This document shows, piece after piece, positions 1,762 to 19,056 of a stretch of DNA of 19,056 nucleotides. This DNA comes from a virus. Taxonomy: Duplodnaviria > Heunggongvirae > Uroviricota > Caudoviricetes. The notes beneath the pieces are model-generated. The model searched no databases and was not told the origin of the DNA. It saw only the letters and a list, made by a program, of their open reading frames with translations. Numbering within the stretch: position 1 is the first letter of the stretch; every line of letters begins with the position of its first letter. A program made the translations under genes and the position numbers. The stretch lies in IMG/VR virus record IMGVR_UViG_2713896899_000019, positions 1 to 19,056 of that record. The stretch is one strand, 5' to 3'.

Positions 1762-1764
1762 TCT

Positions 1765-4727: not shown

Positions 4728-4757
4728 TACTCTCCTTTTGGTTTGAAGGTTTATTGT

Positions 4758-4979
4758 TCATTTCCGGTCCTTAACTTTGCTGTATCGTTCATGGCTCATT
4801 ACTTCCCAGTTCTGGCCGCCGTCTCGGGACAGCAGCCGCCAGCGGCGATTAACCCTCAGACTCAGGTTTCCGGAGCCGTGCATACGACAGGGATGAATTC
4901 GTCTGGCTCTGAACTGGCGGAGAACACGGACCGCCTGCAGGTGCACCCACTCAGGAATTCGTATTGCTGTTAATGTCAC
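4758..4979 (-). CDS. Hypothetical Arg-rich small protein (up to 73 aa; the true start may be internal)
   Basis: A minus-strand ORF is preferred over the overlapping plus-strand ORF (4743-4973) because every neighbour is on the minus strand. The 29-nt overlap with the upstream gene suggests a later start codon. Confidence 0.4.
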   Translation of the reverse strand: MTLTAIRIPEWVHLQAVRVLRQFRARRIHPCRMHGSGNLSLRVNRRWRLLSRDGGQNWEVMSHERYSKVKDRK

Positions 4980-5160
4980 CGATTTCCTCCAGATCAGGAG
5001 CGATTACCTGATATCCCGCTTTCTTTGCTATCCATAAGAAGGTATCCATGCTGGCAATCATCTCGTTATTGTGAACTTTACGGGTATTTATTACCTGACC
5101 ATTTTCAATCGTCATAATGATCTGTACTTTTTCGTGTATAAGAGGGGATAAATCAGACAT
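4951..5160 (-). CDS. Hypothetical protein (69 aa)
   Basis: ORF with a TGATG stop/start overlap with the upstream 119-aa gene. Confidence 0.55.
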   Translation of the reverse strand: MSDLSPLIHEKVQIIMTIENGQVINTRKVHNNEMIASMDTFLWIAKKAGYQVIAPDLEEIGDINSNTNS

Positions 5161-5519
5161 CAGTTAATTCCTCCACTGATATATTTCTCTTTTACGTAGT
5201 CAACAACCTCTTTTAAAAGGCCGTCCACTATCAGTTTCCCTGATTCAGTGAGATATTCCGTGTGTTGATTAATACCGATGGCATTCTGGTATGCGGTACG
5301 GATTGTTGCTTCTCCTTCCGTCCGTCCATATTCAACACGGGTAAGACCCTCAAATCGTAATAACAACTGGTTCATGAACTGTTCAGTTATTTCTATCGTT
5401 GTTATTTCTCCGTCCGGGAGGTCAACGACGAGCAGATTACTACCTGTTTTACGTTGCATCCGCCGGAGTGCCGCTGTTACCATGCGGCGACGATCTTTAT
5501 AAATGGTTGTACATGCCAT
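5160..5519 (-). CDS. Hypothetical protein (119 aa)
   Basis: ORF in the operon. No family recognised. Confidence 0.6.
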   Translation of the reverse strand: MACTTIYKDRRRMVTAALRRMQRKTGSNLLVVDLPDGEITTIEITEQFMNQLLLRFEGLTRVEYGRTEGEATIRTAYQNAIGINQHTEYLTESGKLIVDGLLKEVVDYVKEKYISGGIN

Positions 5520-5522
5520 TTG

Positions 5523-5621
5523 TTATTTCCCGTATGCTTTTCTGAGAAACAGTATTGCAACTGACCAGTATCCTGCATTAGCCATTAATAATGCGGTTTT
5601 ATAAGCGTTTCTATTTTTCAT
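5523..5621 (-). CDS. Candidate 32-aa membrane peptide (MKNRNAYKTALLMANAGYWSVAILFLRKAYGK)
   Basis: Hand translation. The ORF ends 3 nt before the start of the 119-aa gene and has a basic-hydrophobic-basic layout. Confidence 0.3.
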   Translation of the reverse strand: MKNRNAYKTALLMANAGYWSVAILFLRKAYGK

Positions 5622-5703
5622 GCATCACCATTATTTTCTGGTTGTGGAAATCCACGACCAGAGGCCGTCATGTTTTTATGTGTGATTTTTTACTGAATGT
5701 TCT

Positions 5704-5895
5704 TTATTCGTTGCGTAGTGTTTCTATATACTCGTAAGCCATTTCACAGGTCTTATTCATGGAGCGAATGAGACAGCATAAATAATCGTCTGTCTCTCCT
5801 TGGTCGGGCGAATTCTTAAATATAAATTCAAGCATTGATGTATTCTCTTTTATTTGTGCCGCCACTTCCTCAAGAATATTTAATGGAGTTATCAT
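5704..5895 (-). CDS. Hypothetical small acidic helical protein (63 aa)
   Basis: ORF with a 4-nt overlap with the upstream gene. It is the third gene of the PL-proximal trio. Confidence 0.5.
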   Translation of the reverse strand: MITPLNILEEVAAQIKENTSMLEFIFKNSPDQGETDDYLCCLIRSMNKTCEMAYEYIETLRNE

Positions 5896-6083
5896 GTTCT
5901 TTGCTCCTTAAATGCATCGCATGCGCTTCTGGCGTATTGTTGTGCCAGTAAAAAGATATCATCCGAAAGTTCATCACATTCTTCATCACCGGAAGCCGAA
6001 ATGATTAACCCCGCTTCAAGCAGTACGGCAATGTGATGAAAAGCTGTCTCCGGTTCGTTGGTAAGGCCTTTGAACATTTTCAT
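5892..6083 (-). CDS. Hypothetical small acidic protein (63 aa from MKMFKGL; the ORF track extends it to 6116)
   Basis: I prefer the ATG at 6083. It lies 1 nt after the TAA of the upstream gene and 10 nt downstream of AGGAGG. The longer version would overlap the upstream gene by 32 nt. Confidence 0.5.
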   Translation of the reverse strand: MKMFKGLTNEPETAFHHIAVLLEAGLIISASGDEECDELSDDIFLLAQQYARSACDAFKEQRT

Positions 6084-6084
6084 C

Positions 6085-6501
6085 TTATGCTTCCTCCTGA
6101 TTTTGTTTATAAGCATCAGTCAATAACAACATTGGATCACAGCCAAGAACATTAGCCAGAGGGATAAGCATGCTGATGGTTGGTTCGTACTCTCCGCTTT
6201 CCCACTGGATGATGATTTCTTCATCGAGGTCGAGCAGTCTGGCGAGTTCGGCTGTTGTTAAGCCGCAGTCTTCGCGTTGGGTACGAAGACGGTTGTTGAT
6301 TGCAGAATTTTTGTTCTGTAAAAGCATTGCTGACGATAGCTTTCTGGATATGCTATTTGTCATATCCCATGCCAGTCCTGCGCATGACTCTATATCGCTA
6401 GAGAGCGTAGCATCTGGTGTTGCTTTTGCTATTAGTGTAATGAGGCTGCCGAGGTTTTTCAGTTCTTCGAGACAGTCAAGAGTTGTAGCTTTATTGATCA
6501 T
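6085..6501 (-). CDS. Two-domain protein with an unknown helical N-terminus and a C-terminal XRE-family helix-turn-helix (138 aa); first gene of the PL operon
   Basis: The C-terminal sequence (LRTQREDCGLTTAELARLLDLDEEIIIQWESGEYEPTISMLIPLANVLGCDPMLLL) is a textbook XRE HTH. The start lies about 25-30 nt downstream of the predicted PL transcription start. Confidence 0.65.
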   Translation of the reverse strand: MINKATTLDCLEELKNLGSLITLIAKATPDATLSSDIESCAGLAWDMTNSISRKLSSAMLLQNKNSAINNRLRTQREDCGLTTAELARLLDLDEEIIIQWESGEYEPTISMLIPLANVLGCDPMLLLTDAYKQNQEEA

Positions 6502-6505
6502 GAGA

Positions 6506-6584
6506 TGATACCTCAGTTACGAACTTTGCTTCATGGTAACTAAGGTATCAAGGTGTGGCAAGTGATTTTTGATACTTTGGTTTC
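6506..6584 (-). promoter_or_regulatory. OL/PL: leftward early promoter overlapped by three copies of a TGATAC-N4-GTTAC operator
   Basis: On the minus strand the -35 is TTGCCA (6556-6561), followed by a 17-nt spacer and a -10 TACCAT (6533-6538). The operator-like 15-mers are tgatacctcagttac at 6506-6520, its near-identical copy in inverted orientation at 6536-6550 (between -35 and -10), and tgatactttggtttc at 6570-6584. Confidence 0.55.
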
Positions 6585-6604
6585 TTTTTGTGTTTTGTGT
6601 CTGG

Positions 6605-7261
6605 TCAGAAAATATCCCACCTGGCATCAACCACAACACCTACTATTTCGCAATCATTGTCCATTTCTATGATTGGATATTGTGGATTAAGGGGCTTTAG
6701 AAACGCCTTTCCCATTTCAGAAATATATTTTTTGAATGTTGCTTCATTGGTAGATTTTTTTCTGGCGATGACGTAACACCCTGAAAAAACTTCTTTATCT
6801 GGGTTGACAAGGATCGACATTCCTTCAGGAAATGTTATTCCTACGGGCGAAGTCATTGAGTCTCCGTGCACTTCCAGCCAGAACCCCCTCTCTCCAGCGT
6901 ATTTTACAGAATGCCTCCAATTATCCTGATCATACATGTTGTAGTCATCACCAGCAGTTGCGAATAATCCTGCCTGAACCCAGTTAATTACAGGGTAAGA
7001 GTGTGCTGTGTCTCTCTGTGGGCAGCTCTTAACATTATTTTCCCAATGCTTATCTTTTTCATCTCCGTTCTGAAGCCACTGCGGTGAACACTGCAGTGCA
7101 GCTGCGACTTTAAAAAGGGTGTCACCGTTGAAACTTTTTGTAAGGCCTTGCTCGGCTTTACTGATTGCAACTCTGGTGACCCCTGCTTTTTTAGCCAACG
7201 CATCTTGCGTTAACCCAGCTTTTTGTCGTGCGTTGATGAGGCGTTCACCTAAAGATTTCAT
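6605..7261 (-). CDS. cI: CI-type prophage repressor: N-terminal XRE HTH plus C-terminal S24/LexA-like autopeptidase (218 aa from MKSLGERL)
   Basis: The HTH is QKAGLTQDALAKKAGVTRVAISKAEQG. The C-terminal GDSM Ser motif and a downstream Lys (TFKKY) are typical of the S24 family. The gene is divergent from a cro-like gene. I prefer the ATG at 7261 (AAGGAG 8 nt upstream) over the 243-aa ORF-track start at 7336, which would run through the operators. Confidence 0.85.
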   Translation of the reverse strand: MKSLGERLINARQKAGLTQDALAKKAGVTRVAISKAEQGLTKSFNGDTLFKVAAALQCSPQWLQNGDEKDKHWENNVKSCPQRDTAHSYPVINWVQAGLFATAGDDYNMYDQDNWRHSVKYAGERGFWLEVHGDSMTSPVGITFPEGMSILVNPDKEVFSGCYVIARKKSTNEATFKKYISEMGKAFLKPLNPQYPIIEMDNDCEIVGVVVDARWDIF

Positions 7262-7284
7262 TTTTCTTCTCCTTTCATGGCTGC

Positions 7285-7356
7285 TGATACTAAAGTAACA
7301 GAATTTCTTGATACTTTGGATTCTCGCGTTTAACATTCTTGGATAACAGAGTATCC
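7285..7356 (+). promoter_or_regulatory. OR/PR (and probably PRM): rightward early promoter with three operator copies of the same family as OL
   Basis: PR has a -35 TTGATA (7308-7313), a 17-nt spacer and a -10 TAACAT (7331-7336). The 15-mers are tgatactaaagtaac at 7285-7299, tgatactttggattc at 7309-7323 (overlapping the -35), and an inverted-orientation copy at 7342-7356 (ggataacagagtatcc, with palindromic ends) over the predicted start site. Confidence 0.6.
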
Positions 7357-7372
7357 GGTGTGAGGCTAAAGA

Positions 7373-7624
7373 ATGACCCTTTATGAAATATTAAAAACTC
7401 AATTTAAGACCAATGCCGCTATTGGCCGTAGGTTCCCAAAGAAAGGAAGGCCTCGTGGTAGTCAGGGAGTTGGAAAGTGGAAAACACGGGGCGTTCCGGA
7501 GGATGTTGCCATTCTCTGCCATCTGGATCCGAACATTCCATATACACATCCAAGCTTAGCGCGCACGGGAGAGGTGAAGGGCTTGTATGTCCCAGAATTA
7601 CGTTCAGACAGAGATGCCATCTAG
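7373..7624 (+). CDS. cro: Cro-like small DNA-binding regulator (83 aa)
   Basis: First gene downstream of PR and divergent from cI, with a GAGG Shine-Dalgarno sequence upstream. The sequence pattern (AAIGRRF...SQGVGKWKTRGVPEDVAILCHL) resembles Cro/YdaS-type HTH proteins. Confidence 0.7.
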   Translation: MTLYEILKTQFKTNAAIGRRFPKKGRPRGSQGVGKWKTRGVPEDVAILCHLDPNIPYTHPSLARTGEVKGLYVPELRSDRDAI

Positions 7625-7880
7625 GTACTGCCAGGCAGACGAAGAGTGGATTCAGCAGCAGTTACAGGGGCTGCCTCCGTCACTGAGACGGAAGGTCGCC
7701 CTGAAATATGCGGAGGTATACGAAATCACTTTTGACGCTGAGCCTGTTTCATTCCGCAAGGAGAACAGAGCAAGGCACGAAGCAAACACAAGGCTCCGCT
7801 TGTTTGTGAGAAATCAGGGCAGAGCTTTACAGGGGTATACAACTCAGCCGCCCCTGGCAGGAACGCAATCGCGCTCCTGA
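7587..7880 (+). CDS. Hypothetical protein in the cII position (97 aa; alternative start at 7614)
   Basis: ORF with a good Shine-Dalgarno sequence (GGAGAGGTGAAGG) before the ATG at 7587. It overlaps the cro 3' end by 38 nt. Function is inferred only from position. Confidence 0.5.
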   Translation: MSQNYVQTEMPSRYCQADEEWIQQQLQGLPPSLRRKVALKYAEVYEITFDAEPVSFRKENRARHEANTRLRLFVRNQGRALQGYTTQPPLAGTQSRS

Positions 7881-8129
7881 TTGGTACCGGGCTTAAAGGT
7901 GTCCGGTGGCTGAATCCCAAATCTCATTGCATTTGTGTACTAGCTAAGGAGTACATGCAAAATTCAGTGAGAGGAGGGGAGGGGGAGGAGTGCTCGTGTG
8001 TTAGTGCGAAGCACTGGAACAGGCTTTTCCAACAGACGGGTACATAGGTTAGGTAGATCTCGATCTAAAGGGGGATACCTCTGAAAAAACGGCTGTACCA
8101 TAAAGCTAGTACAAAATGGATAAAAAAGT

Positions 8130-8498
8130 ATGAGTGAAGACCTGAAGCAAAATTTAATCGCTCTCCTGGAAGAGCAATTCATTCGCTCCGATGACAAAGT
8201 CGTTTTCGATTATGTGATGCAGAAAAAAATCAAGTCTCAGGGATACCATCTGCAACGCAATTTCAGCATCAGCATTAGCGGTGGTCGTAAAGGGTTTATT
8301 GATTGCCTGGTTACATCATCAGACGGCCAGCAGTGTGCCATTGAGGTCGATAAGAAGTCTCCCCGCAACCGTTCGTTGATGAAGCTGGCTCAGCTACCTG
8401 AGGGGATGTCAGGCTTTGTCCTGCTCAGGGATGGTAAGCACCCTCTTCGATATAGCGAGAACGGAATTGACGTTATTCGTGCGACGAAATTTAAGTGA
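8130..8498 (+). CDS. Small protein with a possible PD-(D/E)xK nuclease-fold motif (122 aa)
   Basis: ORF upstream of the helicase. The segment GFIDCLVTSSDGQQCAIEVDKK has the D...E-x-D-K-K spacing typical of restriction-endonuclease-like folds. This was recognised by eye only. Confidence 0.5.
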   Translation: MSEDLKQNLIALLEEQFIRSDDKVVFDYVMQKKIKSQGYHLQRNFSISISGGRKGFIDCLVTSSDGQQCAIEVDKKSPRNRSLMKLAQLPEGMSGFVLLRDGKHPLRYSENGIDVIRATKFK

Positions 8499-8559
8499 GT
8501 TGATTCGGAAAGGGGCTGGCAGCCTTTGGGGAGACCACCAGCCATGTGAGGAGGAATCC

Positions 8560-8619
8560 ATGAAAACCACATCACAAAATTATTATCTCATCACTGCGGG
8601 GACAGCACAATGCAGCTGA
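8560..8619 (+). CDS. Candidate 19-aa leader/coupling ORF (MKTTSQNYYLITAGTAQCS)
   Basis: GAGGAGG (8548-8554) sits 5 nt before the ATG at 8560. The TGA stop (8617-8619) overlaps the helicase ATG (8610) region. Confidence 0.3.
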   Translation: MKTTSQNYYLITAGTAQCS

Positions 8620-10268
8620 CAATCACGCCGAATTTTGCACAGGAGCGAGCGCTAAACATGTTGCGCCGTGACTGGAAGGCAAACGACACCTTCATGGTTT
8701 ACTCGCCAACAGGTAGCGGTAAAACGGGTCTGGCAGCCTTCATCGTTGCTGGTTTTGTCAGCCGTGGTATGCGTGTTCTGTTCTGTGTTCCGTACACCAT
8801 CCTGATTGGTCAGACGGCTAATCGGTTCGTGCAGTATGGTTTACCTGGAGATGAAATCGGTTATATCTGGGCGGATCACCCGAACTACGATCCGGACCGG
8901 AAAATTCAGATTGCCAGCGCTGACACGCTTATTCGTCGTGTTTTTCCTGAAAATATCGATCTGCTGATTATCGACGAAGCGCACCTGCGTAAAAAACGCA
9001 TCCTGAAGGATATCGAACGTCTGCGCGGCAAAGGCGTAAAGGTGATTGGCCTGTCGGGTACTCCGTTTTCTCCGTTCCTGGGCAAATACTATGACCGACT
9101 GATTAAGCCGACCACCATCGGCGAGTTAATCCAGCGTGGCGATCTGAGTAAATACGAATTTTACGCGCCAACTAAGCCGGATCTGAAAGGTGTTAAAACC
9201 ACATCTTCGCTTGAGTACGGCCGCGATTACAACGAAACACAGCTGGCTGAAATCATGTGCGGCTCTACGCTGGTGGGCGACATCGTACAGAACTGGCTGG
9301 AGAATGGTCGGGATCTACCTACCATCGCTTTCTGCGTCAACGTAGCCCACGCCAATTACCTGACAATCCAGTTTAACCTCGCAGGTGTTAACGCTGAGGT
9401 AATGACCGCAGACACTCCGGTAGATGAGCGCCAGACCATCATTCACCGCTTTGAAACTGGTGCAACGAAAATCATCGTTAGTGTGGGCGTTCTGGTGGCC
9501 GGCTTTGATAGTGACGTTCGTTGCATCATCTACGCCAGGCCAACAAAAAGCGAAATTCGCTGGTTGCAGGCACTCGGGCGTGGGCTGCGCACCGCACCGG
9601 GTAAAGAGTCCTGCCTTATCTTCGATCACAGCGGCACCGTGCACCGTTTGGGTTATCCGGATTCAATCGAGTACGACGATCTTCCCGGTAAGTCTGACGG
9701 CATGGAGGAAAGCGCGCGCCGCGCAGTTGAGGAACGGGCCGAAAAACTGCCACATGAATGCCCTCAATGCCACTACATGAAGCCAGCTGGCGTCTATGTT
9801 TGCCCTAAATGTGGACACAAGCCGCTGCGAGGTGAAGATGTTGATACTGACACTAGCCGCAAACTTAATAAGCTGGGTAAAAATCAGCATCAGTCGACGA
9901 AGACAGAGAAACAGTCCTGGTGGAGTCAGATCAAATTTTATCAGCGCCAGCGTGCTTCGCTGGGGCGTCCAGTCAGTGATGGATGGTGTGCTCACACTTT
10001 CAGGGAGAAATTCGGTGAATGGCCTGATGGGTTGAGCAGTTTCCCGATGGAAATAAGCCCAGAAGTAAGTAACTACATCAAACACAAGCTGATTCGGTTT
10101 GCCAAAGGCCGTCAGCGGACGCAGAGAACTATAGAAAAATTGCAGGCAACGATTCCTCTGTCTCAGGAACGAGGTGAGCGAAGCGAGATGCCAATAGGCA
10201 CTGAGGCTTGGCGCATCATGCAAGCAAAGCAACAACTCCAGAAAAATATAAACAGTTTGAGTCAGTAA
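8610..10268 (+). CDS. Superfamily-2 DEAD/DEAH-box helicase with a C-terminal zinc ribbon (552 aa)
   Basis: Walker A is SPTGSGKTG, motif II is IIDEAHL, motif III is SGTP and motif VI is QALGRGLR. The C-terminal CPQC...CPKC forms a zinc ribbon. Confidence 0.85.
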   Translation: MQLTITPNFAQERALNMLRRDWKANDTFMVYSPTGSGKTGLAAFIVAGFVSRGMRVLFCVPYTILIGQTANRFVQYGLPGDEIGYIWADHPNYDPDRKIQIASADTLIRRVFPENIDLLIIDEAHLRKKRILKDIERLRGKGVKVIGLSGTPFSPFLGKYYDRLIKPTTIGELIQRGDLSKYEFYAPTKPDLKGVKTTSSLEYGRDYNETQLAEIMCGSTLVGDIVQNWLENGRDLPTIAFCVNVAHANYLTIQFNLAGVNAEVMTADTPVDERQTIIHRFETGATKIIVSVGVLVAGFDSDVRCIIYARPTKSEIRWLQALGRGLRTAPGKESCLIFDHSGTVHRLGYPDSIEYDDLPGKSDGMEESARRAVEERAEKLPHECPQCHYMKPAGVYVCPKCGHKPLRGEDVDTDTSRKLNKLGKNQHQSTKTEKQSWWSQIKFYQRQRASLGRPVSDGWCAHTFREKFGEWPDGLSSFPMEISPEVSNYIKHKLIRFAKGRQRTQRTIEKLQATIPLSQERGERSEMPIGTEAWRIMQAKQQLQKNINSLSQ

Positions 10269-10269
10269 G

Positions 10270-11238
10270 ATGAAAACAGCAGCTGCAGCGAAAGGCCGCT
10301 GGCCTGAAATATTAGAGCACTTCGGCTTGCCGCCGATAACAGGAAAAAATCACTTCAAGGGTGAATGCCCGGTATGCGGTGCACGTGGCAAGTTCCGAAT
10401 TGATGACCGCGACGGTGCAGGAACGTGGATCTGTGTATGTGGTAGTGGCGATGGTATGAAACTTGTCACCCTGACACAGGCGAAGCCATTTAACGAGATT
10501 TGTACCGAAATAGACCGCCTGATCGGTAATGATTACCAACGGGTTAAAATCCCGGTAACCAGCAGCGCCACCAGCTTACGCAAACGGGTATTGAGCAAGT
10601 TTTCAAAACTGGAGGCACTGCGTGGTACATCCGGCGCAGCGTATCTTAATTCTCGTGGAATATTCAGTCTTCCTGCTGAGGCGATCCGGTTCAATGCCAG
10701 GCAGAGACACAACGGGAGTGTGTTCCAGTCTCTTTATTCACTTGCTACGGACGATAAAGGGGAGTTGTGCTATCTGCACCAGACTCTGCTTGATGGTGAT
10801 AAAAAAGCAGATATCGGTAGCAGTGCAAAGCGCCTCAAATCCCTGCAGGAAGATAACTATTTGGATCACGCTCGTTCTGTAGCTATCCGCATGTTTCCTG
10901 TTGCTAGCACTCTGGGTATCGCCGAAGGCATCGAAACAGCGCTGTCAGCGCACCAGATTTATAACGTGAACACTTGGGCAACCATTAACAGCGGCTTTAT
11001 GAAAAAGTTCCGCGTACCAGCTGGTGTTCTGCACCTGATTATTTTTGCCGACCGTGACGAGAACAGCGCCACCGGGCTGGCTGCGGCTTGCGAATGTGCT
11101 CATGCCAATCTGATGGCAAAGAATGACCTGCAGCGCGTGAGCGTGTACTGGCCGGATCACGATGATTTCAACAATATGCTCATGAACGGTGATCAGGTTC
11201 GAGAGCTGGTTTTCCATAAGAAAAAGGCGGTTGCGTAA
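10270..11238 (+). CDS. Primase-like protein: P4-alpha-type zinc-binding motif plus Toprim domain (322 aa)
   Basis: The N-terminal CPVCGARGKFRIDDRDGAGTWICVCG is a primase-helicase zinc-binding motif. The Toprim Glu (AEGIETALS) and DxD (FADRDEN) are present. The start lies 1 nt after the helicase stop. Confidence 0.8.
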   Translation: MKTAAAAKGRWPEILEHFGLPPITGKNHFKGECPVCGARGKFRIDDRDGAGTWICVCGSGDGMKLVTLTQAKPFNEICTEIDRLIGNDYQRVKIPVTSSATSLRKRVLSKFSKLEALRGTSGAAYLNSRGIFSLPAEAIRFNARQRHNGSVFQSLYSLATDDKGELCYLHQTLLDGDKKADIGSSAKRLKSLQEDNYLDHARSVAIRMFPVASTLGIAEGIETALSAHQIYNVNTWATINSGFMKKFRVPAGVLHLIIFADRDENSATGLAAACECAHANLMAKNDLQRVSVYWPDHDDFNNMLMNGDQVRELVFHKKKAVA

Positions 11239-12095
11239 TGCGTACTGATAACAACGAACATAAAGCACTATTCACCATCCCGACGGCAGCGTACAGCTCC
11301 GCCCTCGCAAACATCAAGCCCCTGCCAGAGCAACGGAGAATCACCGGGCATAAGCAGACTGATGCTTATCTTTGGGTGCTGGAGGTTATCCGTCTGAACG
11401 AACCCGCACATCTGGATGCTGCTGAGGCTGCGCTGGTGAAAATTAAAATTTCCCCAAAAGAGGCCCAGGAACGCTATTCGCGTTATCTGCTGGCGAATGG
11501 TGGTGATCCTTTCCAGATTGCTTTCGGTACCATCGGCATGGATAACCCGGCACAGGCAATCAGGATCGCCCGGGAGAATATCAAAAAAGCAACATCAGTC
11601 AGGGCTACGTTTGGTAGCTATGAAGCAGCACTCGAAGATGTGGAAGCCGAGCGAGTGATCAAGTCTTCCCAGAAATTTATCGACGATCATCTCTGGGGCT
11701 GGACTGCAGCCGAGAAGACAGCGGGCAGAATTGATGGCATCCGTATGAATGAAATTGATGATCAGCGTCGTGCATATGTTGATGGCTATCGTGATGTACT
11801 GCCAGAGCCTCATACATTGTCAGACGTAGTTCGTGAGTTTGTTTACTGGGACTGGCTCTACAGTGTTCGCCACACTGCGTCTAAAGAACAGGGCGATGAG
11901 TATGGTTACTCTGAGCATCACGAATCGGTATATGACCGCGAGCGCTACCTTGAAAAATTGCTGATGACCATCAAACCGGTGACACGGGCTGAAGCCGTGG
12001 AGGTGTGTCGTTGGTTTTTGGCAAGCGGAAAGGGCGAATATATGAAAGACAATGGCGCGGCTGTTATTCTTAATCTGGTTGGGGAGTGTGAATAA
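11238..12095 (+). CDS. Hypothetical protein (285 aa), translationally coupled to the primase and Q genes
   Basis: Long ORF with TAATG overlaps at both ends (11235-11240 and 12092-12097). No family recognised. Confidence 0.65.
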   Translation: MRTDNNEHKALFTIPTAAYSSALANIKPLPEQRRITGHKQTDAYLWVLEVIRLNEPAHLDAAEAALVKIKISPKEAQERYSRYLLANGGDPFQIAFGTIGMDNPAQAIRIARENIKKATSVRATFGSYEAALEDVEAERVIKSSQKFIDDHLWGWTAAEKTAGRIDGIRMNEIDDQRRAYVDGYRDVLPEPHTLSDVVREFVYWDWLYSVRHTASKEQGDEYGYSEHHESVYDRERYLEKLLMTIKPVTRAEAVEVCRWFLASGKGEYMKDNGAAVILNLVGECE

Positions 12096-12925
12096 TGAAG
12101 CTTGAGGCATCGCTAAAATACTTCAGTCCTCAGGGAATGTATATCGGCGACGATGTGAAAGGAACCTCTCCGGAACGTCTTACAGGCACCGATGTTATGG
12201 CGGCTATTGGTACCACCAGCAATCGTGAGCGGTTTGGCTTGGCGGCCTTCTTCGGGAAGGCCGGTATCAGCAAGACTGATGAGCAGATGGCAGTCCAAGC
12301 GCTGGCGCGTCACGCGATGGAAATTGCACCGAAGAATGTGCGTAAAGCAGCTGGTGGTGAATTTGGCTGGTGTATGCTGGTACTGGCGCAGTTTGCTTTT
12401 GCTGAGTATTCCCGATCGGCAGACACCAGCGTAACATGCCATAGTTGCAGTGGTACCGGACTAACACCCCGTAAGCAGGTCATTCGTAAGGTTTCATACC
12501 CATGGGGTAAAGCACCATATTGGGCCAGTCGCTCCCGTGCTGTTCGACCGTCAGACTGGGAGAAATGGACAGAGGTAACGGAAGTTGTACCAGTCGTTTG
12601 CGATGTATGTAAAGGGAAGGGAGTGATAAGTGCCAGGTGTCGTTGTGGTGGAAAGGGGGAGGTACTCGACCGCAAAGCTACAAGCGAGCGTGGTGCACCA
12701 GTGTTTAAAATCTGCGAACGTTGCAGCGGAAATGGATTTTCCACGGTACCGTCTACCACAGTATATAAAGTTGTACTGAAGCGGATACCCGAGCTACATG
12801 TCAGGACATGGACGCGTAATTGGAAGCCGTTTCTTGATTCTCTGGTTGACATTTGCCACCAGGAAGAGCGTAAGGCCGATATTGCTTTTCAGAATGTGAC
12901 AAGTTTTGGTGATGATGTGAACTAA
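12095..12925 (+). CDS. Q: Late-gene antiterminator Q, Qin-prophage (QuuQ/YdfT)-like type with a DnaJ-like zinc-finger region (276 aa)
   Basis: Last gene before the late promoter and lysis cassette. The N-terminal region resembles my recollection of E. coli QuuQ. There are four CxxCxGxG-type repeats: CHSCSGTG, CDVCKGKG, CRCGGKG and CERCSGNG. Confidence 0.7.
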   Translation: MKLEASLKYFSPQGMYIGDDVKGTSPERLTGTDVMAAIGTTSNRERFGLAAFFGKAGISKTDEQMAVQALARHAMEIAPKNVRKAAGGEFGWCMLVLAQFAFAEYSRSADTSVTCHSCSGTGLTPRKQVIRKVSYPWGKAPYWASRSRAVRPSDWEKWTEVTEVVPVVCDVCKGKGVISARCRCGGKGEVLDRKATSERGAPVFKICERCSGNGFSTVPSTTVYKVVLKRIPELHVRTWTRNWKPFLDSLVDICHQEERKADIAFQNVTSFGDDVN

Positions 12926-13018
12926 GCTTAGGGTTTTTGCGACATTACACTTGATTTTGTCCGAATCTGTCATGTATGCTTTTAAGCATGTGGAATAATG
13001 CGTAAATGATTTTGATAG

Positions 13019-13040
13019 AAGCCCCTTTCGGGGCTTTTAT
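13019..13040. terminator. GC-rich hairpin terminator shared by the convergent Q gene and the orphan gene
   Basis: The stem pairs aagcccc (13019-13025) with ggggctt (13030-13036) around a tttc loop, followed by TTTTAT on the plus strand and flanked by an A-run on the other side. The stop codon of the minus-strand gene is at 13040-13042. Confidence 0.65.
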
Positions 13041-13972
13041 CATTTCAGCCCTTTTAAAAAGCGTTCGAAATTATGGAATTCAAGTTCATCCGCTGTCGAT
13101 GAGTATTTTATTTTGTTTGCGATGGGACGCAGATTTTTTTTAGTTAGGAATTTACTGGCTTCATGTTTCAGTTTTTTTAATCGCTTGATTCGTTCTTCGA
13201 TTGAACTGGCAATTTTGGCAACATTAGAAATTTCTGGGCTTGGGGCTGTTTGTAGATCAATACACTGAATTTTTTTTAGATCTTCTTTGAGCGCAACAAA
13301 AAAATCACGAAGATTGTTTTCTGGTAAAAGAACATGACTAAATGATACTTTTCCTATGTAGAATTCACTTATTGCCTCTCCAGACTCGCGCATGTGTTCA
13401 TTCATTGCGAACAGAATTGTTTTGGTATTCTTATCAGTTTCCACTTCAGAAAGGGTTACAAGGCCTGTCTGGCTCTTGGTCAAAAAACGAATTTCTGTAG
13501 CACCAAGTCTTCCGGAGTAATTGGAATTTTTACTATTTTCGATGGTAGAAGATAGATAATCTATTGTGGGTTTGATATTTCGTATCGTTTCAATATTTTT
13601 TTGCCACTCTTCACATTTACTTTTTGCGGTGCTAATAATTTCCCGATTGGTTTCGAGTTGCATAAATTTATTGAAACTAAGAACGTTTTCACCAAATTCC
13701 ACACCAAATTCGTTTTTACCACATTTATTTCCGATGTTGGTTTCAATGCCACTAGATGTTTTTACAATATAACCCATTTGATGTGGTTGGTTGCAACCAG
13801 TTAGACCACAGTGGATTTCTTCTTTAAATTTGTAGTAACCAATTATCTCCTCAAGTTGTTGAACTCCTTTGTCTATAGTGGTGACAAAGTTTGGTCTGGA
13901 TATAATTTCCTCCCAGTTTTCAAGTTTCTCGATGCCGTTTTCAGTTCTGAGAAAAATCATGAATCGCTCCAT
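13040..13972 (-). CDS. Orphan 310-aa protein of unknown function (alternative start at 13960, giving 306 aa); candidate moron/defence gene
   Basis: This is the only long minus-strand ORF in the rightward half of the window. It is markedly AT-rich: spot counts of 60-nt lines give about one third G+C, against about one half in Q. GGAG lies 6 nt before the second ATG (13960). A terminator hairpin sits immediately 3' of the gene. I recognise no family. Confidence 0.75.
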   Translation of the reverse strand: MERFMIFLRTENGIEKLENWEEIISRPNFVTTIDKGVQQLEEIIGYYKFKEEIHCGLTGCNQPHQMGYIVKTSSGIETNIGNKCGKNEFGVEFGENVLSFNKFMQLETNREIISTAKSKCEEWQKNIETIRNIKPTIDYLSSTIENSKNSNYSGRLGATEIRFLTKSQTGLVTLSEVETDKNTKTILFAMNEHMRESGEAISEFYIGKVSFSHVLLPENNLRDFFVALKEDLKKIQCIDLQTAPSPEISNVAKIASSIEERIKRLKKLKHEASKFLTKKNLRPIANKIKYSSTADELEFHNFERFLKGLK

Positions 13973-14074
13973 TTGAAAGTGGACCGTTTATTTTATCGGC
14001 ATAAAAATGAGAACACCACAAGTTATTTTATTACCGAATACTTGGTAAAGATGGGTAACTTCGCCACACAGCTT

Positions 14075-14098
14075 AAACCCGCCGCCGTGCGGTTTTTT
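14075..14098 (+). terminator. tR'-like terminator of the short late-promoter leader transcript
   Basis: A short GC stem (ccgc/gcgg, 14079-14092) is followed by T6 (14093-14098). The next bases (tctgcacaacaggtaagagcatt) match, from memory, the sequence just after lambda tR'. The late promoter itself should lie at 13973-14060, but I could not fix its hexamers. Confidence 0.5.
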
Positions 14099-14369
14099 GT
14101 CTGCACAACAGGTAAGAGCATTCTCCCTTATGGGGCTTGGCTTAAATGCACTGAGTGCTCTTATCGTTGTGCTGAATTAAGCGAATACCGGAAGCAGAAC
14201 CGGATCACCAAATGCGTACAGGCGTCATCGCCGCCCAGCAACAGCACAACCCAAACTGAGCCGTAGCCACTGGCTGTCCTGAATTCATCAGTGATAGTTA
14301 CGCTGCGGCCTTCTTTTCCCCATTCCCAATATAAGAACTACGCAATCCGTTACTTGCGGAGGCGTTGCT
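14099..14369 (+). promoter_or_regulatory. Long untranslated late-operon leader, lambda-like at the nucleotide level
   Basis: The stretch gctgaattaagcgaataccggaagcagaaccggatcaccaaatgcgtacaggcgtcatcgccgcccagcaacagcacaacccaaactgagccgtagccactg is nearly identical to my memory of lambda DNA between tR' and S. I accept no ORF here. Confidence 0.45.
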
Positions 14370-14585
14370 ATGAAATCCATGGACAAAATTTCAACGGGCA
14401 TTGCCTACGGCACCTCCGCAGGCAGTGCTGGCTACTGGTTTTTACAGTGGCTTGATCAGGTCAGTCCGTCACAGTGGGCTGCGATTGGTGTACTGGGGAG
14501 TCTGGTTCTGGGCTTCCTGACTTATCTGACAAATCTGTACTTCAAAATCAGAGAAGACAAGCGTAAGGCTGCACGGGGAGAGTAA
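14370..14585 (+). CDS. S: Phage-21-type pinholin (71 aa, dual-start MKSM motif)
   Basis: The sequence [71 protein letters not shown] matches S21 as I recall it. It has two TM segments, Met1/Met4 dual starts and a charged C-terminus. Confidence 0.85.
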
Positions 14586-14589
14586 TTCA

Positions 14590-14940
14590 ATGACTCAAAA
14601 CTATGAACTGATTGTGAAAGGGATCCGCAATTTTGAGAATAAAGTTACGGTAACTTTAGCGTTACGGGACAAAAAACGCTTTGACGGTGAAATTTTTGAC
14701 CTGGACATCTCGCTGGACCGTGTTGAAGGTGCCGCGCTGGAGTTTTATGAGGCAGCAGCCAGAAGGGGCATCAGACAGGTCTTCCTGGATGTTGCTGCCG
14801 GGTTATGTGAAGGGGATGAGCAGTCGCCGGAAAAGCGCCCCGTAATTTTAGATGCGCAGAATGTGTGGATAACCCACAAAGGAAAGCTACCAGGAAGAAT
14901 TACTGGTTCTCTGAAGACTCCTCCAGAATCACAACCTTAA
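14590..14940 (+). CDS. YdfR/DUF1327-like protein inserted between holin and endolysin (116 aa)
   Basis: The N-terminal ~70 aa (MTQNYELIVKGIRNFENKVTVT...RVEGAALEFYEAAARR) resemble E. coli Qin prophage YdfR as I remember it. There is a GGGGAGAG Shine-Dalgarno sequence upstream. Confidence 0.6.
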   Translation: MTQNYELIVKGIRNFENKVTVTLALRDKKRFDGEIFDLDISLDRVEGAALEFYEAAARRGIRQVFLDVAAGLCEGDEQSPEKRPVILDAQNVWITHKGKLPGRITGSLKTPPESQP

Positions 14941-15003
14941 GTCACTGACCGGAACAGATAAACCTGTCCGTGGGCAGAAACCGATAAATCCTGATAAATA
15001 TCC

Positions 15004-15537
15004 ATGAACGCAAAAATCAGATACGGCCTGTCGGCTGCCGTTCTGGCACTGATTGCCGTCGGTGCGCCCGCTCCTGATATTCTCGACCAGTTTCTGGATG
15101 AAAAAGAAGGTAACCACACAACGGCATACCGCGATGGGTCCGGCATCTGGACCATCTGTCGGGGTGCCACGATGGTGGATGGAAAACCCGTTTTTCCCGG
15201 TATGAAACTGTCGAAGGAAAAATGCGACCAGGTCAACGCCATTGAGCGTGATAAGGCGCTGGCATGGGTGGAGCGCAATATTAAAGTACCACTGACCGAA
15301 CCACAAAAAGCGGGTATCGCGTCATTTTGTCCCTATAACATTGGCCCCGGTAAGTGTTTTCCGTCGACGTTTTATAAGCGACTGAATGCCGGTGATCGTA
15401 AAGGTGCATGCGAGGCGATTCGCTGGTGGATAAAAGATGGTGGGCGCGATTGCCGCATACGTTCAAATAACTGCTATGGACAGGTTATTCGTCGTGACCA
15501 GGAAAGCGCATTAGCCTGTTGGGGGATAGATCAGTGA
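15004..15537 (+). CDS. R: SAR (signal-anchor-release) endolysin, T4-lysozyme/GH24 family (177 aa)
   Basis: The N-terminal Ala/Gly-rich weakly hydrophobic segment ([18 protein letters not shown]) is SAR-like. The catalytic spacing E-x8-D-x5-T is visible in [16 protein letters not shown]. The gene follows a pinholin. Confidence 0.85.
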
Positions 15538-15998
15538 GCAGAGTCGCCGCGATTATTTATGCTCTGGTTATCTGCATCATCGTCTGCCTGTCGTGGGCGG
15601 TCAATCATTACCGTGATAACGCCATCGCCTACAAAGAACAGCGTGATAAAAAAGTCAGTGAGCTGAAGCAGGCGATCGCCACCATCGCTGACATGCAGCA
15701 GCGTCAGCGTGATGTTGCTGCTCTCGATGCAAAGTACTCGAGAGAATTAGCCAATGCGAAAGCTGAAAATGAAACTCTGCGCGCTGATGTTGCCGCTGGT
15801 CGTCGTCGGTTGCACATCAAAGCAGTCTGTCAGTCAGTGCGTGAAGCCACCACCGCCTCCGGCGTGGATAATGCAACCAGCCCCCGACTGGAAGACACCG
15901 CTGAACGGGATTATTTCACCCTCAGAGAGCGGCTGATGACGATGCAGATGCAACTGGAAGGGGCACAGGAGTATATCCGCACTCAGTGCATTAAGTAG
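15534..15998 (+). CDS. Rz: Rz i-spanin (154 aa from the GTG at 15534)
   Basis: From [30 protein letters not shown] onward the protein is near-collinear with lambda Rz as I recall it. The GTGA overlap with the endolysin stop favours 15534 over the TTG at 15519 used by the ORF track. Confidence 0.85.
15754..15936 (+). CDS. Rz1: Rz1 o-spanin lipoprotein, fully embedded in Rz in the +1 frame (60 aa)
   Basis: It has a lipobox (LPLVVVGC) and a proline-rich mature region ([18 protein letters not shown]). It is closely lambda-Rz1-like. Confidence 0.8.
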
Positions 15999-16040
15999 CC
16001 TTTTTATCGTGGTAAACATTTCGCAGGGTATGAGGTATTT

Positions 16041-16391
16041 ATGCCATCACTAATTCCACGTGCCTGCCGTAAGCGTGGATGTGCAGGTACAACCACAGAC
16101 AGTTCTGGTTACTGCGATAAACATCGTGGCGAAGGATGGGTACAGCATCAACGCGGACTGAGTCGCCACCAGCGTGGCTATGGCTCGAAATGGGATGCCA
16201 TACGTGCGCGCATACTGAAGCGTGATAATCATCTGTGTCAGAACTGCCTGCGCAATGGGAGAGCCGTTGAAGCCAGAACTGTGGACCACATCATTCCGAA
16301 AGCTCATGGTGGCACGGATGCAGACAGTAACCTGCAGAGTCTGTGCTGGCCCTGTCATAAAGCAAAAACAGCGCGCGAACGCATCAATTGA
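16041..16391 (+). CDS. HNH endonuclease, packaging-associated (116 aa)
   Basis: The H-N-H motif is DHIIPKAHGGTDADSNLQSLCWPCHKAKT, with N-terminal Cys pairs. The gene is adjacent to the terminase genes, as in HK97-type phages. Confidence 0.85.
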   Translation: MPSLIPRACRKRGCAGTTTDSSGYCDKHRGEGWVQHQRGLSRHQRGYGSKWDAIRARILKRDNHLCQNCLRNGRAVEARTVDHIIPKAHGGTDADSNLQSLCWPCHKAKTARERIN

Positions 16392-16539
16392 TAACAGTTC
16401 CCATCTGTAGGGGAGGGGCGGGTCAAATCTCTGCAGCCCTGGCTGCTCAGTACCGCCGCCTGACCCTTCCTCACATCGCCGCAGGTTCGAAAACTTTTTT
16501 TTGGAAATGTGATTAAACGATTGATAGGTAAAACCGATT
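16392..16539. other. Candidate cos / terminase-recognition region
   Basis: Non-coding gap between the HNH and terS genes. It contains nested symmetry: GGGTCA (16420-16425) with TGACCC (16461-16466), flanking the 14-bp palindrome GCAGCCctGGCTGC (16433-16446). It also contains a T8 run (16495-16502). The location is the one expected for HK97/P27-type cos phages. Confidence 0.35.
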
Positions 16540-17022
16540 ATGCCAGGACCCCCGAAAACCCCGCCACGCCTGCATTTGATACGAGGCAACCCCTCAAAAC
16601 GCCCCGTTAAAGACCCCAAAAAAACCGCTAAAAAGGATGAAAAAGGTCTCCCTAAAATTCCGCAACATTTAGGGGCACAGGGGAAGTACTGGTTCAGGCG
16701 AATGGCGGAAGAATTGAATGCGGAAGGGATCATTTCTCAGCTTGATGCGCGTGCACTCGAGTTACTGGTGGAAGCCTACACCGAATACCGGCATCACTGC
16801 GAAACACTCGATGTTGAGGGTTATACCTACCGCACGGAAACGCAGAATGGCGATGTGATGATCAAGGCACATCCGGCTGCGGCGATGAAGGCGGATGCCT
16901 GGAAGCGGATCCGGGCGATGCTTGCAGAGTTTGGTATGTCACCGGCAAGCCGGGCTAAAGTAAATACCGCCGGACCGGATGATGTTGATCCACTGGCAGA
17001 GCTTTTAAAAGCGAGAGACTGA
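16540..17022 (+). CDS. terS: Terminase small subunit, P27 family (160 aa)
   Basis: The N-terminus (MPGPPKTPPRLHLIRGNPSKRP) and the central region (ALELLVEAYTEYRHHCETL...KAHPAAAM...FGMSPASRAKV) are typical of P27-family small terminases. The stop overlaps the terL start. Confidence 0.85.
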   Translation: MPGPPKTPPRLHLIRGNPSKRPVKDPKKTAKKDEKGLPKIPQHLGAQGKYWFRRMAEELNAEGIISQLDARALELLVEAYTEYRHHCETLDVEGYTYRTETQNGDVMIKAHPAAAMKADAWKRIRAMLAEFGMSPASRAKVNTAGPDDVDPLAELLKARD

Positions 17023-18779
17023 TGGCAAAAGTGGCTGACGGGATCCGTTACGCCGAACGTGTTGTTGCAGGAGAAATTGTTGCTGGCGAATTTGTCCGTC
17101 TGGCCTGCCAGCGTTTTCTTGATGATCTGAAGTACGGCGAAGAGCGGGGGATTTATTTCAGTGAACCCCGTGCACAGCACATCCTGAATTTCTACAAATT
17201 TGTGCCCCATGTGAAAGGGGCGCTGGCAGGCCAGCCCATTGAGTTGATGGACTGGCATGTATTTATCCTCATTAATATTTTTGGTTTTGTCATTCCGCTG
17301 GTGAATGAAGAGACCGGGGAAGTTGTCATGCGCAGCGATGGCAGCGGACGCCCGGTGATGGTGCGCCGGTTCCGGACGGCGTACAACGAAGTCGCCCGTA
17401 AAAACGCAAAATCAACCCTGTCATCGGGTATCGGCCTGTATATGACGGGGGCAGATGGTGAAGGCGGTGCTGAGGTGTATTCAGCCGCAACCACGCGTGA
17501 CCAGGCCAGAATCGTGTTTGAAGACGCCAAAAATATGGTCAGAAAAGCCCGGTCGACACTCGGGCGGTTGTTTGATTTCAACAAGCTGGCGATTTACCAG
17601 GAGCAGAGCGCATCAAAATTTGAACCGCTTTCCTCGGATGCAAACAACCTGGATGGTCTGAACATCCACTGCGCCATTATTGATGAGCTGCATGCACATA
17701 AAACCCGTGACGTGTGGGACGTTCTGGAAACGGCAACCGGTGCCCGTCTGCAGTCCCTGTTATTTGGCATCACCACGGCTGGCTTTAACAAGGAAGGGAT
17801 TTGTTACGAGCAACGCGATTACGCCATCAAGGTATTGCGAGGCTATAACAGCGACGTGGAGGGCGCGGTAAAAGACGACTCCTACTTTGCAATTATTTAC
17901 ACGCTCGATGAGGGAGATGATCCGTTTGATGAAACGGTCTGGCAGAAAGCGAATCCCGGCCTGGGCATCTGTAAACGCTGGGATGATCTGCGTCGTCTGG
18001 CGAAAAAAGCGAAGGAACAGGTCTCTGCGCGGGTGAATTTTTTCACGAAACACATGAATGTGTGGGTCACTGCCGAATCTGCCTGGATGGACATGATTAA
18101 GTGGGAGAAGTGCGAATACATTGCTCCACAGCATGAGCTGAAAACATATCCCATGTGGGTCGGCGTCGACCTTGCTCATAAGATTGATATCTGTGCGGCG
18201 GCAAAGCTCTGGCGAACCGATAACGGACATGTTCATGCCGATTTTAAATTCTGGCTTCCGGAAGGACGGCTGGAACGATGCTCGCGGCAGCAGGCAGAAC
18301 TTTACCGGAAGTGGGCAGAGATGGGGAAACTCATCCTGACGGATGGTGATGTTATCTATCATGCTCAGATAAAAAGTGACTTACTGGAATGGATTGGTGG
18401 TGAAAACCTGAGGGAACTGGGATTTGACCCGTGGAGTGCAATGCAGTTCAGTCTGGCGCTGGCTGAAGAAGGGATACCGCTGGTGGAAGTTCCGCAGACG
18501 GTCCGCAATCTGTCAGAGGCCATGAAGGAAACGGAATCACTGGTCTATGCCGGGCGTTTCCATCACAGCAATCATCCGGTCATGAACTGGATGATGTCTA
18601 ACGTTACGGTAAAACCGGACAAAAACGACAACATCTTCCCGAATAAATCCACGCCGGAAGCCAAAATCGACGGCCCTGTTGCGATGTTTACAGCAATGAG
18701 CCGGATGCTGGTCAATGGCGGTGAACCGGAGCCGGATCTGTCTGAACATCTGATTAGTGTTGGTATCCGCTCGCTTTAA
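17022..18779 (+). CDS. terL: Terminase large subunit (585 aa)
   Basis: The size, the ATPase-like motifs ([14 protein letters not shown]) and the C-terminal nuclease region fit the family. The gene is coupled to terS by an ATGA overlap. Confidence 0.9.
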
Positions 18780-18790
18780 CCGAGGACATT

Positions 18791-18973
18791 ATGTTTCTGA
18801 TAATTCTCGCGCCACTGGTGGGCGTGCTGGGTGCGCTTTTGCTGGCGTATGGTGCCTGGCTGATTTATCCCCCGGCGGGTTTTGTTGTTGCCGGGGCGCT
18901 GTGCCTGTTCTGGTCGTGGCTGGTGGCGCGATATCTCGACCGTACACAGCCGTCTGTCGGCGGAGGTAAATAG
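18791..18973 (+). CDS. Small two-TM membrane protein (60 aa)
   Basis: ORF between terL and the portal gene with two hydrophobic segments ([24 protein letters not shown] and [17 protein letters not shown]). Confidence 0.5.
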
Positions 18974-19056
18974 TGTTCTTTTCGGGATTATTTCAACGAA
19001 AAAGTGACGCGCCGGTGACCACGCCAGCAGAGCTGGCGGATGCTATCGGGCTGTCA
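18973..19056 (+). CDS. Portal protein, N-terminal 28 codons only (GTG start; truncated by the window end)
   Basis: The GTG overlaps the preceding TAG. The translation [28 protein letters not shown] runs open to the window edge. The position after terL and my recollection of HK97-family portal N-termini support the call. Confidence 0.55.
   Translation, partial: MFFSGLFQRKSDAPVTTPAELADAIGLS

Follow-up and report, generated by a model that had tools for sequence, protein, structure and literature searches.

An antisense gene behind the Q antiterminator of an Escherichia coli prophage encodes a conserved protein with a predicted zinc site and is a possible lysogen-expressed exclusion gene

The 19,056-nucleotide stretch analysed here (IMG/VR record IMGVR_UViG_2713896899_000019, positions 1 to 19,056; hereafter the window) is a lambdoid prophage of Escherichia coli. 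It encodes an integrase, a CI-type repressor, a helicase-primase replication module, a Q antiterminator (PF03589), a P21-type holin, a lysozyme, Rz, an HNH endonuclease and a P27-type terminase. Its relatives include phiP27 and the Stx2f phage phi467, with which the window shares 98% identity across 79% of its length. Between the Q and holin genes, both of which lie on the plus strand, there is a single open reading frame (ORF) on the opposite strand (13040-13972). This gene, its product and the family to which the product belongs are the subject of this study.

The ORF translates into a 310-amino-acid (aa) protein, residues 54-90 of which read HCGLTGCNQPHQMGYIVKTSSGIETNIGNKCGKNEFG. The true start is very probably the second ATG, the codon of M5 at position 13960, which yields a protein of 306 aa. 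Nearly all homologues are 305-307 aa long and begin with MIF or MIT at the same Met, and the RefSeq coding sequence (CDS) in E. coli 2015C-4136CT1 encodes the same 306 aa. The upstream ATG is probably not the start of the gene: it lies about 17 nucleotides (nt) downstream of the candidate -10 hexamer, and the GGAG Shine-Dalgarno sequence for M5 begins with its G (Table 1). Since M5 is the likely start, the residue numbers of an earlier reading of the same DNA (the original prediction) fall by four. Residues are counted here from M5, and adding 4 restores the earlier numbers. The stretch GATAAAAT-N-ACGGTCCACT is common to the window and the allele of locus L114. Homologues from Klebsiella and Providencia phages display better sigma-70 matches, 30-41 nt 5' of their starts; the match in the window is weak and stays at the level of consensus. 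Outside the cluster described below, the protein has only the cysteines C116 and C233, in agreement with the count made originally (C120 and C237 in that numbering). Inspection without a dedicated predictor revealed no obvious hydrophobic segment or signal sequence (grand average of hydropathy -0.5), and the protein is probably soluble and cytoplasmic.

The protein had been described as an orphan, and this description does not survive database searches. The whole protein aligns with PHROG 7003, a family of unknown function (E = 6.6e-111; residues 5-310 of the 310-aa ORF against positions 1-309 of the 309-position profile), and end-to-end matches were likewise obtained for eight divergent homologues encoded by phages, plasmids and chromosomes. 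When 1.84 billion cluster representatives (50% identity) were searched exhaustively with HMMER, 571 clusters passed a threshold of E <= 1e-3 and 297 of them also passed E <= 1e-10, and there are 96 near relatives in Enterobacterales. The carriers are prophages, plasmids and chromosomes of Gamma- and Betaproteobacteria from gut, soil and marine sources. Among the best 150 matches listed, nearly all are 280-330 aa long, and none is a domain fusion, all of them being stand-alone proteins. PHROG 7003 is the only family that, on sequence grounds, demonstrably contains the protein: Pfam, NCBIfam and PADLOC gave no match to it, Pfam gave none to 96 relatives, and it gave no useful match to 10 members that share only the N-terminal domain.

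An alignment of 96 homologues (20-86% identity, mostly 22-30% to the query; mean column identity 34%) contains only nine invariant columns, namely Y43, C51, C56, H60, G63, G77, C80, G81 and N276, and the same nine hold when 114 sequences are aligned. Conservation is concentrated at the N-terminus, with a mean pairwise identity of 45% in the N-terminal domain and of 23-25% in each of the three later segments. Outside this domain, the recognisable motifs are ENxL[RK] near residues 214-218 and FLxxxNL, which includes the invariant N276. This is a real, selected, single-gene family. Strong protein-level conservation over 571 clusters indicates that the protein itself is selected, beyond the act of transcription.

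The nine invariant residues include four that point to a metal site. The original prediction had recognised a cluster of the form H-C-x4-C-x3-H-x19-C. Its spacing (C55-x4-C60-x3-H64-x19-C84 in that numbering) is exact, and this is the sole Cys/His cluster of the protein; the leading His (H54, here H50) drops out, as its column is occupied by P (28), H (24) and R (12) among the 96 sequences and thus lies outside the ligand set. The conservation check proposed for the other four residues came out clearly, since C51, C56, H60 and C80 are invariant both in the 96 and in the 114 sequences. Judged from these alignments, the cluster is far beyond chance, and we take it as strong evidence for a Cys3-His metal site that would bind zinc. 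In the AlphaFold2 models, C51 and C56 lie in an 8-residue loop at the tip of the hairpin formed by strands 36-50 and 59-68. The predicted sheet register (36-50/59-68/73-77, followed by helix 78-85) places the four residues at the same end of the sheet, where they would converge in space. Such a placement lends indirect support to a knuckle-plus-helix zinc finger, in line with the small zinc-binding knuckle originally suggested. Because all four coordination positions would be held by protein ligands, the zinc is more likely structural than catalytic, a call that follows from general knowledge of zinc sites.

The structure prediction and Foldseek search that had been suggested gave a confident model and no solved relative. 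The full-length AlphaFold2 model has a mean predicted local distance difference test (pLDDT) score of 95.3, a predicted template modelling (pTM) score of 0.85 and zero segments below 50. After the N-terminal domain it displays a 42-residue helix (87-128), a region of shorter helices and two short strands (133-233), a 31-residue helix (241-271) and two terminal helices; pLDDT is 80-84 at residues 171-200. Sequence searches of the PDB with the protein, the full-length profile and the N-terminal domain profile returned nothing below E = 0.04, and the best Foldseek match of the full model against the PDB had E = 0.16, scores so weak that they indicate no homology. The N-terminal domain likewise had no relative in the PDB, and a protein search with its profile recovered fragments only. 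The features expected of an HNH or beta-beta-alpha-metal nuclease (a catalytic His ending strand 1, a conserved Asn/His, likeness of fold) were absent. The fold is thus confident as a prediction and without a solved relative, and the original author's inability to place the protein in a family is matched by the lack of any characterised family in these sequence and structure searches.

The layout of the locus provided further insights. The block between the stop codons of Q and of the antisense gene is conserved and contains a pR'-like promoter and a hairpin (Table 1), the 3' arm of which contains the stop codon of the gene. This promoter/terminator block is conserved over five loci whose downstream genes are only 25% identical, and in the divergent alleles of loci L112 and L013 the hairpin is preserved through changes on both arms. 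In lambda, pR' and tR' are the late promoter and the leader terminator. By analogy, leader transcripts of the lysogen should end at the tR'-like hairpin, and Q-modified polymerase should read on, antisense, through the whole gene.

Table 1. Coordinates of the antisense gene, its signals, its predicted zinc ligands and its flanking features in the window
Feature	Positions	Strand	Basis and remarks
Coding sequence, 306 aa plus stop, from M5 of the earlier ORF	13040..13960	-	ORF list and translation; start and length of homologues; RefSeq; PHROG 7003
Upstream in-frame ATG (adds MERF)	13970..13972	-	Few homologues annotated with it (P0006, P0016, 310 aa)
GGAG ribosome-binding site	13967..13970	-	6 nt 5' of the ATG at 13960; same stretch kept in the L114 allele (77% identical)
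Candidate -10 hexamer TAAAAT of the gene's own promoter	13990..13995	-	29 nt 5' of the M5 start; conserved; -35 weak; consensus-level only
N-terminal domain, residues 1-86	13703..13960	-	Beta strands (three long, two short) and helix 78-85; best-conserved region in the family
Residues 87-306, fast-evolving part	13043..13702	-	Helices 87-128 and 241-271, shorter helices, strands 167-173 and 197-204, three C-terminal helices
C51 codon (earlier C55), predicted zinc ligand 1	13808..13810	-	Invariant 96/96; first residue after strand 36-50
C56 codon (earlier C60), predicted zinc ligand 2	13793..13795	-	Invariant 96/96; hairpin-tip loop
H60 codon (earlier H64), predicted zinc ligand 3	13781..13783	-	Invariant 96/96; second residue of return strand 59-68
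C80 codon (earlier C84), predicted zinc ligand 4	13721..13723	-	Invariant 96/96, followed by invariant G81; first turn of helix 78-85
A7 homopolymer in the gene (codons W-Q-K-N)	13596..13602	- (T7 on plus strand)	A6 in L001 (phi467), L064 and L076
pR'-like late promoter	12951..12980	+	-35 TTGATT 12951-12956, 18-nt spacer, -10 TATGCT 12975-12980
tR'-like terminator, 13-bp GC-rich hairpin plus T-run	13013..13042	+	-26.3 kcal/mol, z = -5.5; abuts the 3' end of the antisense gene
Q antiterminator gene	12095..12925	+	Pfam PF03589, E = 1.5e-51; convergent with the studied gene
Holin gene, P21 S type	14370..14585	+	Pfam PF04971, E = 1.4e-35; far edge of the accessory slot

Few complete E. coli genomes have the gene: a nucleotide search detected it in 15 of 5,426, and 12 complete genomes contain an intact copy, at a nucleotide identity of at least 94%. 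It is tightly tied to this Q family, as seven of the eight E. coli contexts inspected carry a member directly after Q and antisense to it. These seven span three replication modules, and their downstream cargo comprises stx2f, stx2e-like, stx2i or tRNA genes, or else the holin follows directly; in the Shiga-toxin phages, the gene stands immediately upstream of stx2f, stx2e-like or stx2i. The eighth context (L115; E. coli 2012EL-2448, NZ_CP027586, about 3277-3780) retains only the last 27 codons, owing to a clean deletion of about 930 bp relative to L116, to which it is otherwise 92-96% identical. It is the one inspected out of three genomes in which an 87%-identical Q occurs without the gene.

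Allele replacement was also observed at this position. Phage vB_EcoS-611R1 (L013) and loci L112 and L113 carry a 314-aa allele only 25.6% identical to the window protein, between flanks that are 96-98% identical. Aligned with vB_EcoS-611R1, the window displays 97.5% nucleotide identity up to position 644 of the 831 positions of Q, where this identity ends at a mosaic boundary. Hence, the C-terminal part of Q, the late promoter and terminator and the gene allele appear to have been swapped as one block. A pair made up of Q and an antisense gene of the 611R1 type was also detected at 424837-426733 of NZ_CP114132.1, a 438,722-bp E. coli record from a plasmid collection, and its presence implies a prophage or phage-plasmid within that record.

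Losses of the gene recur. A homopolymer of seven A residues within it is shortened to six in phi467 and at least two IMG/VR prophage contigs, which splits the gene into ORFs of 136 and 188 aa; phi467 is annotated with two CDS. Gene calls reveal the same split pattern in L049. The difference between A7 and A6 could be a real inactivation, phase variation or a sequencing artefact. Truncated alleles are also present in complete genomes. This recurrence of frameshift, truncation and deletion indicates that the phage can dispense with the gene. GC content is 0.33-0.37 across the gene versus 0.47-0.54 in the flanks. The gene thus displays the odd base composition, and the presence/absence or replacement between similar phages, by which morons are recognised.

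Beyond E. coli, we collected further members with a degenerate DNA pattern derived from the invariant residues. This pattern matched the window and 12 of 15 loci, and then 93 IMG/VR viral contigs, which were analysed by crude gene calling and clustering. In 33 loci of this set, the gene converges with a Q of the PF03589 type as its downstream neighbour, and in 7 with a DUF1133 Q-like protein. The opposite flank carries divergent genes, namely those for holins, lysozymes and, at about six loci, stx2f A/B. Homologues occupy the same slot in Providencia and Serratia prophages, which have a different Q family. The Serratia prophage also encodes a protein of the Acb2/Tad1-hairpin Pfam family, the family of anti-CBASS/Thoeris sponges, just past its lysis genes (L012, 5979-6260), and this family occurred twice among the neighbours in viral loci.

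A second slot, independent of the first, lies next to repressor genes. In the Klebsiella phage ST13-OXA48phi12.2 (L014), the homologue separates a CI-like gene from the early-left operon and is encoded on the opposite strand; in lambda, this is the position of rexAB. The leftward promoter of this phage (TTGACG-17-TACATT, 5956-5928) overlaps two copies of a 20-nt operator-like repeat, AATGTACCTTTAGTTACCTT, of which there are three copies (5928-5982; the third at 6738-6757, between the CI-like gene and cro). These repeats look like oL and oR operators. Transcription from pL would therefore run antisense through the homologue, about 0.5 kb downstream of the promoter. An annotated 144-aa ORF between the homologue and the repeats (5454-5888) looks doubtful. 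Pseudomonas phage Atpa001 has two genes on the complement strand near its repressor, and the homologue is one of these. At twelve additional IMG/VR loci, the gene has a small convergent neighbour in common (cluster c5), and at least one of these loci, L035, contains the DUF2303 gene seen beside the Klebsiella copy as well, which suggests that the cluster c5 loci represent the same early-left slot.

Plasmids constitute a third setting. Plasmid-borne copies were found in Vibrio vulnificus, Burkholderia, Pseudomonas (including pQBR103), Alteromonas and Enterobacter, and megaplasmids of Pseudomonas and Burkholderia carry them widely. The homologue of the Rep3 replicon L010 is surrounded by DNA methyltransferase genes. 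Throughout, the gene always stands alone: a conserved partner gene was sought and discarded, as the genes adjacent to the Vibrio, Pseudomonas phage, pQBR103, L010, Klebsiella and Providencia members are similar neither to one another nor to the family. For the 36 viral loci that have no Q close by, we also scanned 143 proteins representative of the neighbouring genes. Pfam identified CI-type repressors, Cro and integrases among them, and PADLOC identified single instances of RexA, PDC-M66A/B, PDC-M07, HEC-01/09 and an AriA-like protein. PDC-M66B was mapped to about 2 kb from the gene in L041, and PDC-S33 was placed in L023. Outside the Q slot, co-location of the gene with defence genes has modest support from these occurrences, which do not amount to a statistical enrichment.

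Based on these findings, we tentatively postulate that the gene is a moron encoding a 306-aa zinc-site protein, expressed in the lysogen, silenced by lytic transcription, and probably serving exclusion or defence. As a whole we consider this reading plausible, a little short of an even chance. A structural Cys3-His zinc site would hold together the conserved 86-residue N-terminal domain. The gene would be a low-GC insert with its own candidate promoter, convergent with Q, pR' and tR'. In the lysogen, transcripts from pR' would stop at tR', at the 3' end of the gene, and leave the gene expressed. During the lytic phase, Q would allow read-through of tR', and antisense late transcription over the whole gene would shut it off. 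We infer this lysogen-restricted expression with antisense shut-off from the layout, as the gene is convergent with pR'/tR' or, in the second slot, with pL.

The function that we attach to it is more weakly grounded. The protein would most likely act in mobile-element conflict, in superinfection exclusion or a defence of the abortive-infection type, through binding and not as an enzyme. Its invariant zinc domain, as the constant module, would contact a conserved target, whereas specificity would reside in the variable helical body, and antisense silencing would spare the prophage's own lytic cycle. The broad Proteobacterial span, carriage by both phages and plasmids, allele replacement at a fixed slot and the probably cytoplasmic location of the protein favour mobile-element conflict over a host-specific role in virulence.

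Several observations weigh against this proposal. In a scan of 12700-14600, promoter- and terminator-like sites were not commoner than in shuffled sequence, and the promoter and terminator calls stay at consensus level. None of the defence profiles of PADLOC-DB 2.0 (2023) matched the protein even at E <= 10. All family members are annotated as 'hypothetical', none being linked to phage resistance by annotation or experiment, and the accessions tried are not mentioned in the full-text papers searched or in the DefensePredictor supplements. The defence neighbours are single occurrences, only one of which is mapped relative to the gene. Several chromosomal copies lie amid housekeeping genes rather than in defence islands, and their surroundings lack mobile-element genes: the copies in marine contigs follow nrdAB, and the Alloalcanivorax copy is flanked by panB and sseB. 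Finally, the Vibrio vulnificus plasmid copy is near an antirestriction gene, a gene with a zincin-like metallopeptidase domain and hok, surroundings that fit a role in anti-defence or establishment as well.

The last point leads to other explanations of the gene. The product could be an anti-defence or establishment protein, such as an inhibitor of host immunity, expressed upon entry of the plasmid or phage. The Vibrio neighbourhood, which we take to resemble a plasmid leading region, the methyltransferase surroundings on the Rep3 replicon and the spread over megaplasmids would suit such a role, and many anti-defence proteins are likewise small, non-enzymatic and fast-evolving. We nonetheless regard it as distinctly improbable, because in both phage slots the gene is antisense to lytic promoters, the opposite of what is expected of an early-infection gene, because 306 aa is large for a typical phage inhibitor, and because the gene is retained in prophages and at stable chromosomal sites. 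The close association with Q suggests another role, in which the protein, or mere convergent transcription, damps Q-dependent read-through into the stx and lysis genes or times their expression. The seven Q-linked E. coli contexts, with a deletion remnant as the eighth, the joint exchange of the gene allele with the C-terminal part of Q (break at Q nucleotide 644), the position between pR' and stx2f, stx2e-like or stx2i, and the overlap of the tR' hairpin with the stop codon are all consistent with it. Members also occur without Q, beside cI and pL in Klebsiella and Pseudomonas phages, on plasmids and at phage-free chromosomal sites, and conservation at the protein level argues that selection is not on transcription alone, so a late-switch role is unlikely.

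The function put forward in the original prediction concerned the protein itself: its N-terminal part would sense nucleic acid or protein in a metal-dependent manner, and the basic helical tail attached to it would serve oligomerisation or nucleic-acid binding. The invariant Cys3-His site is in its favour. The basic, helical character noted for the last 70 residues was found in this orthologue (pI 10.1; 16 K+R versus 8 D+E; predicted helical), but it is not a trait of the family, in which the net charge of this segment averages +1.3 +/- 3.1 (standard deviation) and is positive in only 59% of members. The window protein, at +8, is near the maximum. As the charge is unconserved, the idea of a nucleic-acid-binding tail rests on a peculiarity of one orthologue. 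The tail is modelled as three helices with pLDDT 94-98 and no low-confidence segment, within a model of pTM 0.85, and looks like part of the fold rather than a free appendage. Moreover, no nucleic-acid-binding family or fold was matched at a meaningful score. The N-terminal domain is the most conserved part of the protein, which is unusual for a sensor that determines specificity, and its conservation would suit a constant module better. Neither half of the sensor-and-tail proposal thus fits the family well, and we think it rather unlikely. A chance ORF or a decaying pseudogene, at which the frameshifted, truncated and deleted copies might hint, can practically be set aside: full-length homologues with the invariant residues reach down to about 22% identity, the structure prediction is confident, and the intact copies in complete E. 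coli genomes are closely similar, so conservation refutes it.

Returning to the preferred reading of a lysogen-expressed exclusion moron, it can be extended into a bolder proposal, which we consider possible though on balance doubtful. PHROG 7003 would then be a new single-protein immunity or exclusion system, based on a zinc-binding fold that lacks a solved relative, whose self-immunity is hard-wired by antisense placement behind a lytic promoter (pR'/tR' or pL). Convergent transcription would silence the gene when the resident prophage turns lytic, and infecting phages would meet a pre-made protein. In Shiga-toxin phages, it could also set the basal read-through into the toxin genes.

Further features of the window lie around the gene. 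Directly upstream of Q, a 285-aa protein (11238-12095, plus strand) has no Pfam match, and many of the prophages related to this one carry it together with the helicase-primase module (cluster c2, 21 loci). A DUF1327 (YdfR-like) gene (14590-14940, plus strand) sits between the holin and the lysozyme of the lysis cassette. An HNH endonuclease gene (16041-16391, plus strand) lies immediately 5' of the small terminase gene, and RefSeq labels the equivalent terminase subunit as P27 family. A second terminator-like hairpin occurs on the late (plus) strand at 14081-14103 (GCCGCCGTGCGGT, then TTTTTTG), between the promoter region of the antisense gene and the holin, and may be another Q-dependent read-through point. 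The window is an stx-negative relative of the Stx2f phages and has only about 400 bp (13973-14369) from the gene to the holin. Stx2f strains have stx2fA/B and genes for tRNA-Thr and tRNA-Gly in this interval (L006, 5934-8603). A tRNA scan of the window found none, and an Rfam search of the whole window returned zero matches.

If the proposed function holds, these proteins would be an unrecognised, widespread single-gene player in phage-phage and phage-plasmid conflict. Antisense placement behind a repressor- or Q-controlled lytic promoter would be a simple, general route to expression in the lysogen only, and could reveal other genes of this kind. Since the gene adjoins stx2f, stx2e-like and stx2i, its transcription could affect toxin expression, and its frameshift and deletion alleles, which are frequent, could serve as markers of lineages in which this effect differs. 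Even without a phenotype, this is a well-defined 'dark' protein family worth a domain entry. Genomic context, which the original prediction did not use, was the most informative evidence.

The sequence family to which the protein belongs offers little by way of comparison, as PHROG 7003, its full-length match, is a cluster label without function, structure or literature. C1 domains and PARP-1 zinc fingers, which are treble-clef-like, resemble the predicted zinc site in that a knuckle at the hairpin tip supplies two of the ligands and the first helical turn another; the scores fall far short of homology, and the combination of C-x4-C-x3-H-x19-C with an 86-residue five-strand context matched no searched family. 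Two proteins from the literature were also considered and set aside. GiPD474, a defence protein of Gifsy prophages, is a ParA-like ATPase encoded near the immunity region and hence a different protein. For the tail-assembly-interference protein Tai, a term search of the paper found no matching description and no mention of zinc.

In terms of the proposed function, the closest parallels are exclusion and abortive-infection proteins that prophages express in the lysogen, namely BstA, rexAB, sieB and HK97 gp15. Lambda rexAB, P22 sieB, HK97 gp15 and lambda bor are lysogen-expressed accessory genes with their own signals, located beside cI/pL or within the late region and dispensable for lytic growth. 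RexB, SieB and gp15 are membrane proteins, and Bor is a lipoprotein. The gene studied here differs from these in its unrelated sequence, in the fold of its product and in the probably cytoplasmic location of that product. It shares with bor a position antisense to late transcription, which makes bor the nearest known case of this layout in the late region, and its Klebsiella-phage homologue shares its slot with rexAB. BstA, at about 300 aa, is similar in size and has an N-terminal domain of the KilA-N type. It is a single prophage-borne abortive-infection gene of Salmonella phage BTP1 and other prophages, which protects the lysogen while sparing the resident prophage (PMC8585504). The two differ in that neither sequence nor fold is similar, Pfam KilA-N and PADLOC giving no match to the protein described here, and a defence function is put forward here as a hypothesis. 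They are alike in being lone prophage genes, and the equivalent of the self-sparing of BstA would here be antisense late transcription. Set beside these systems, the gene is probably a protective prophage moron built on an undescribed fold.

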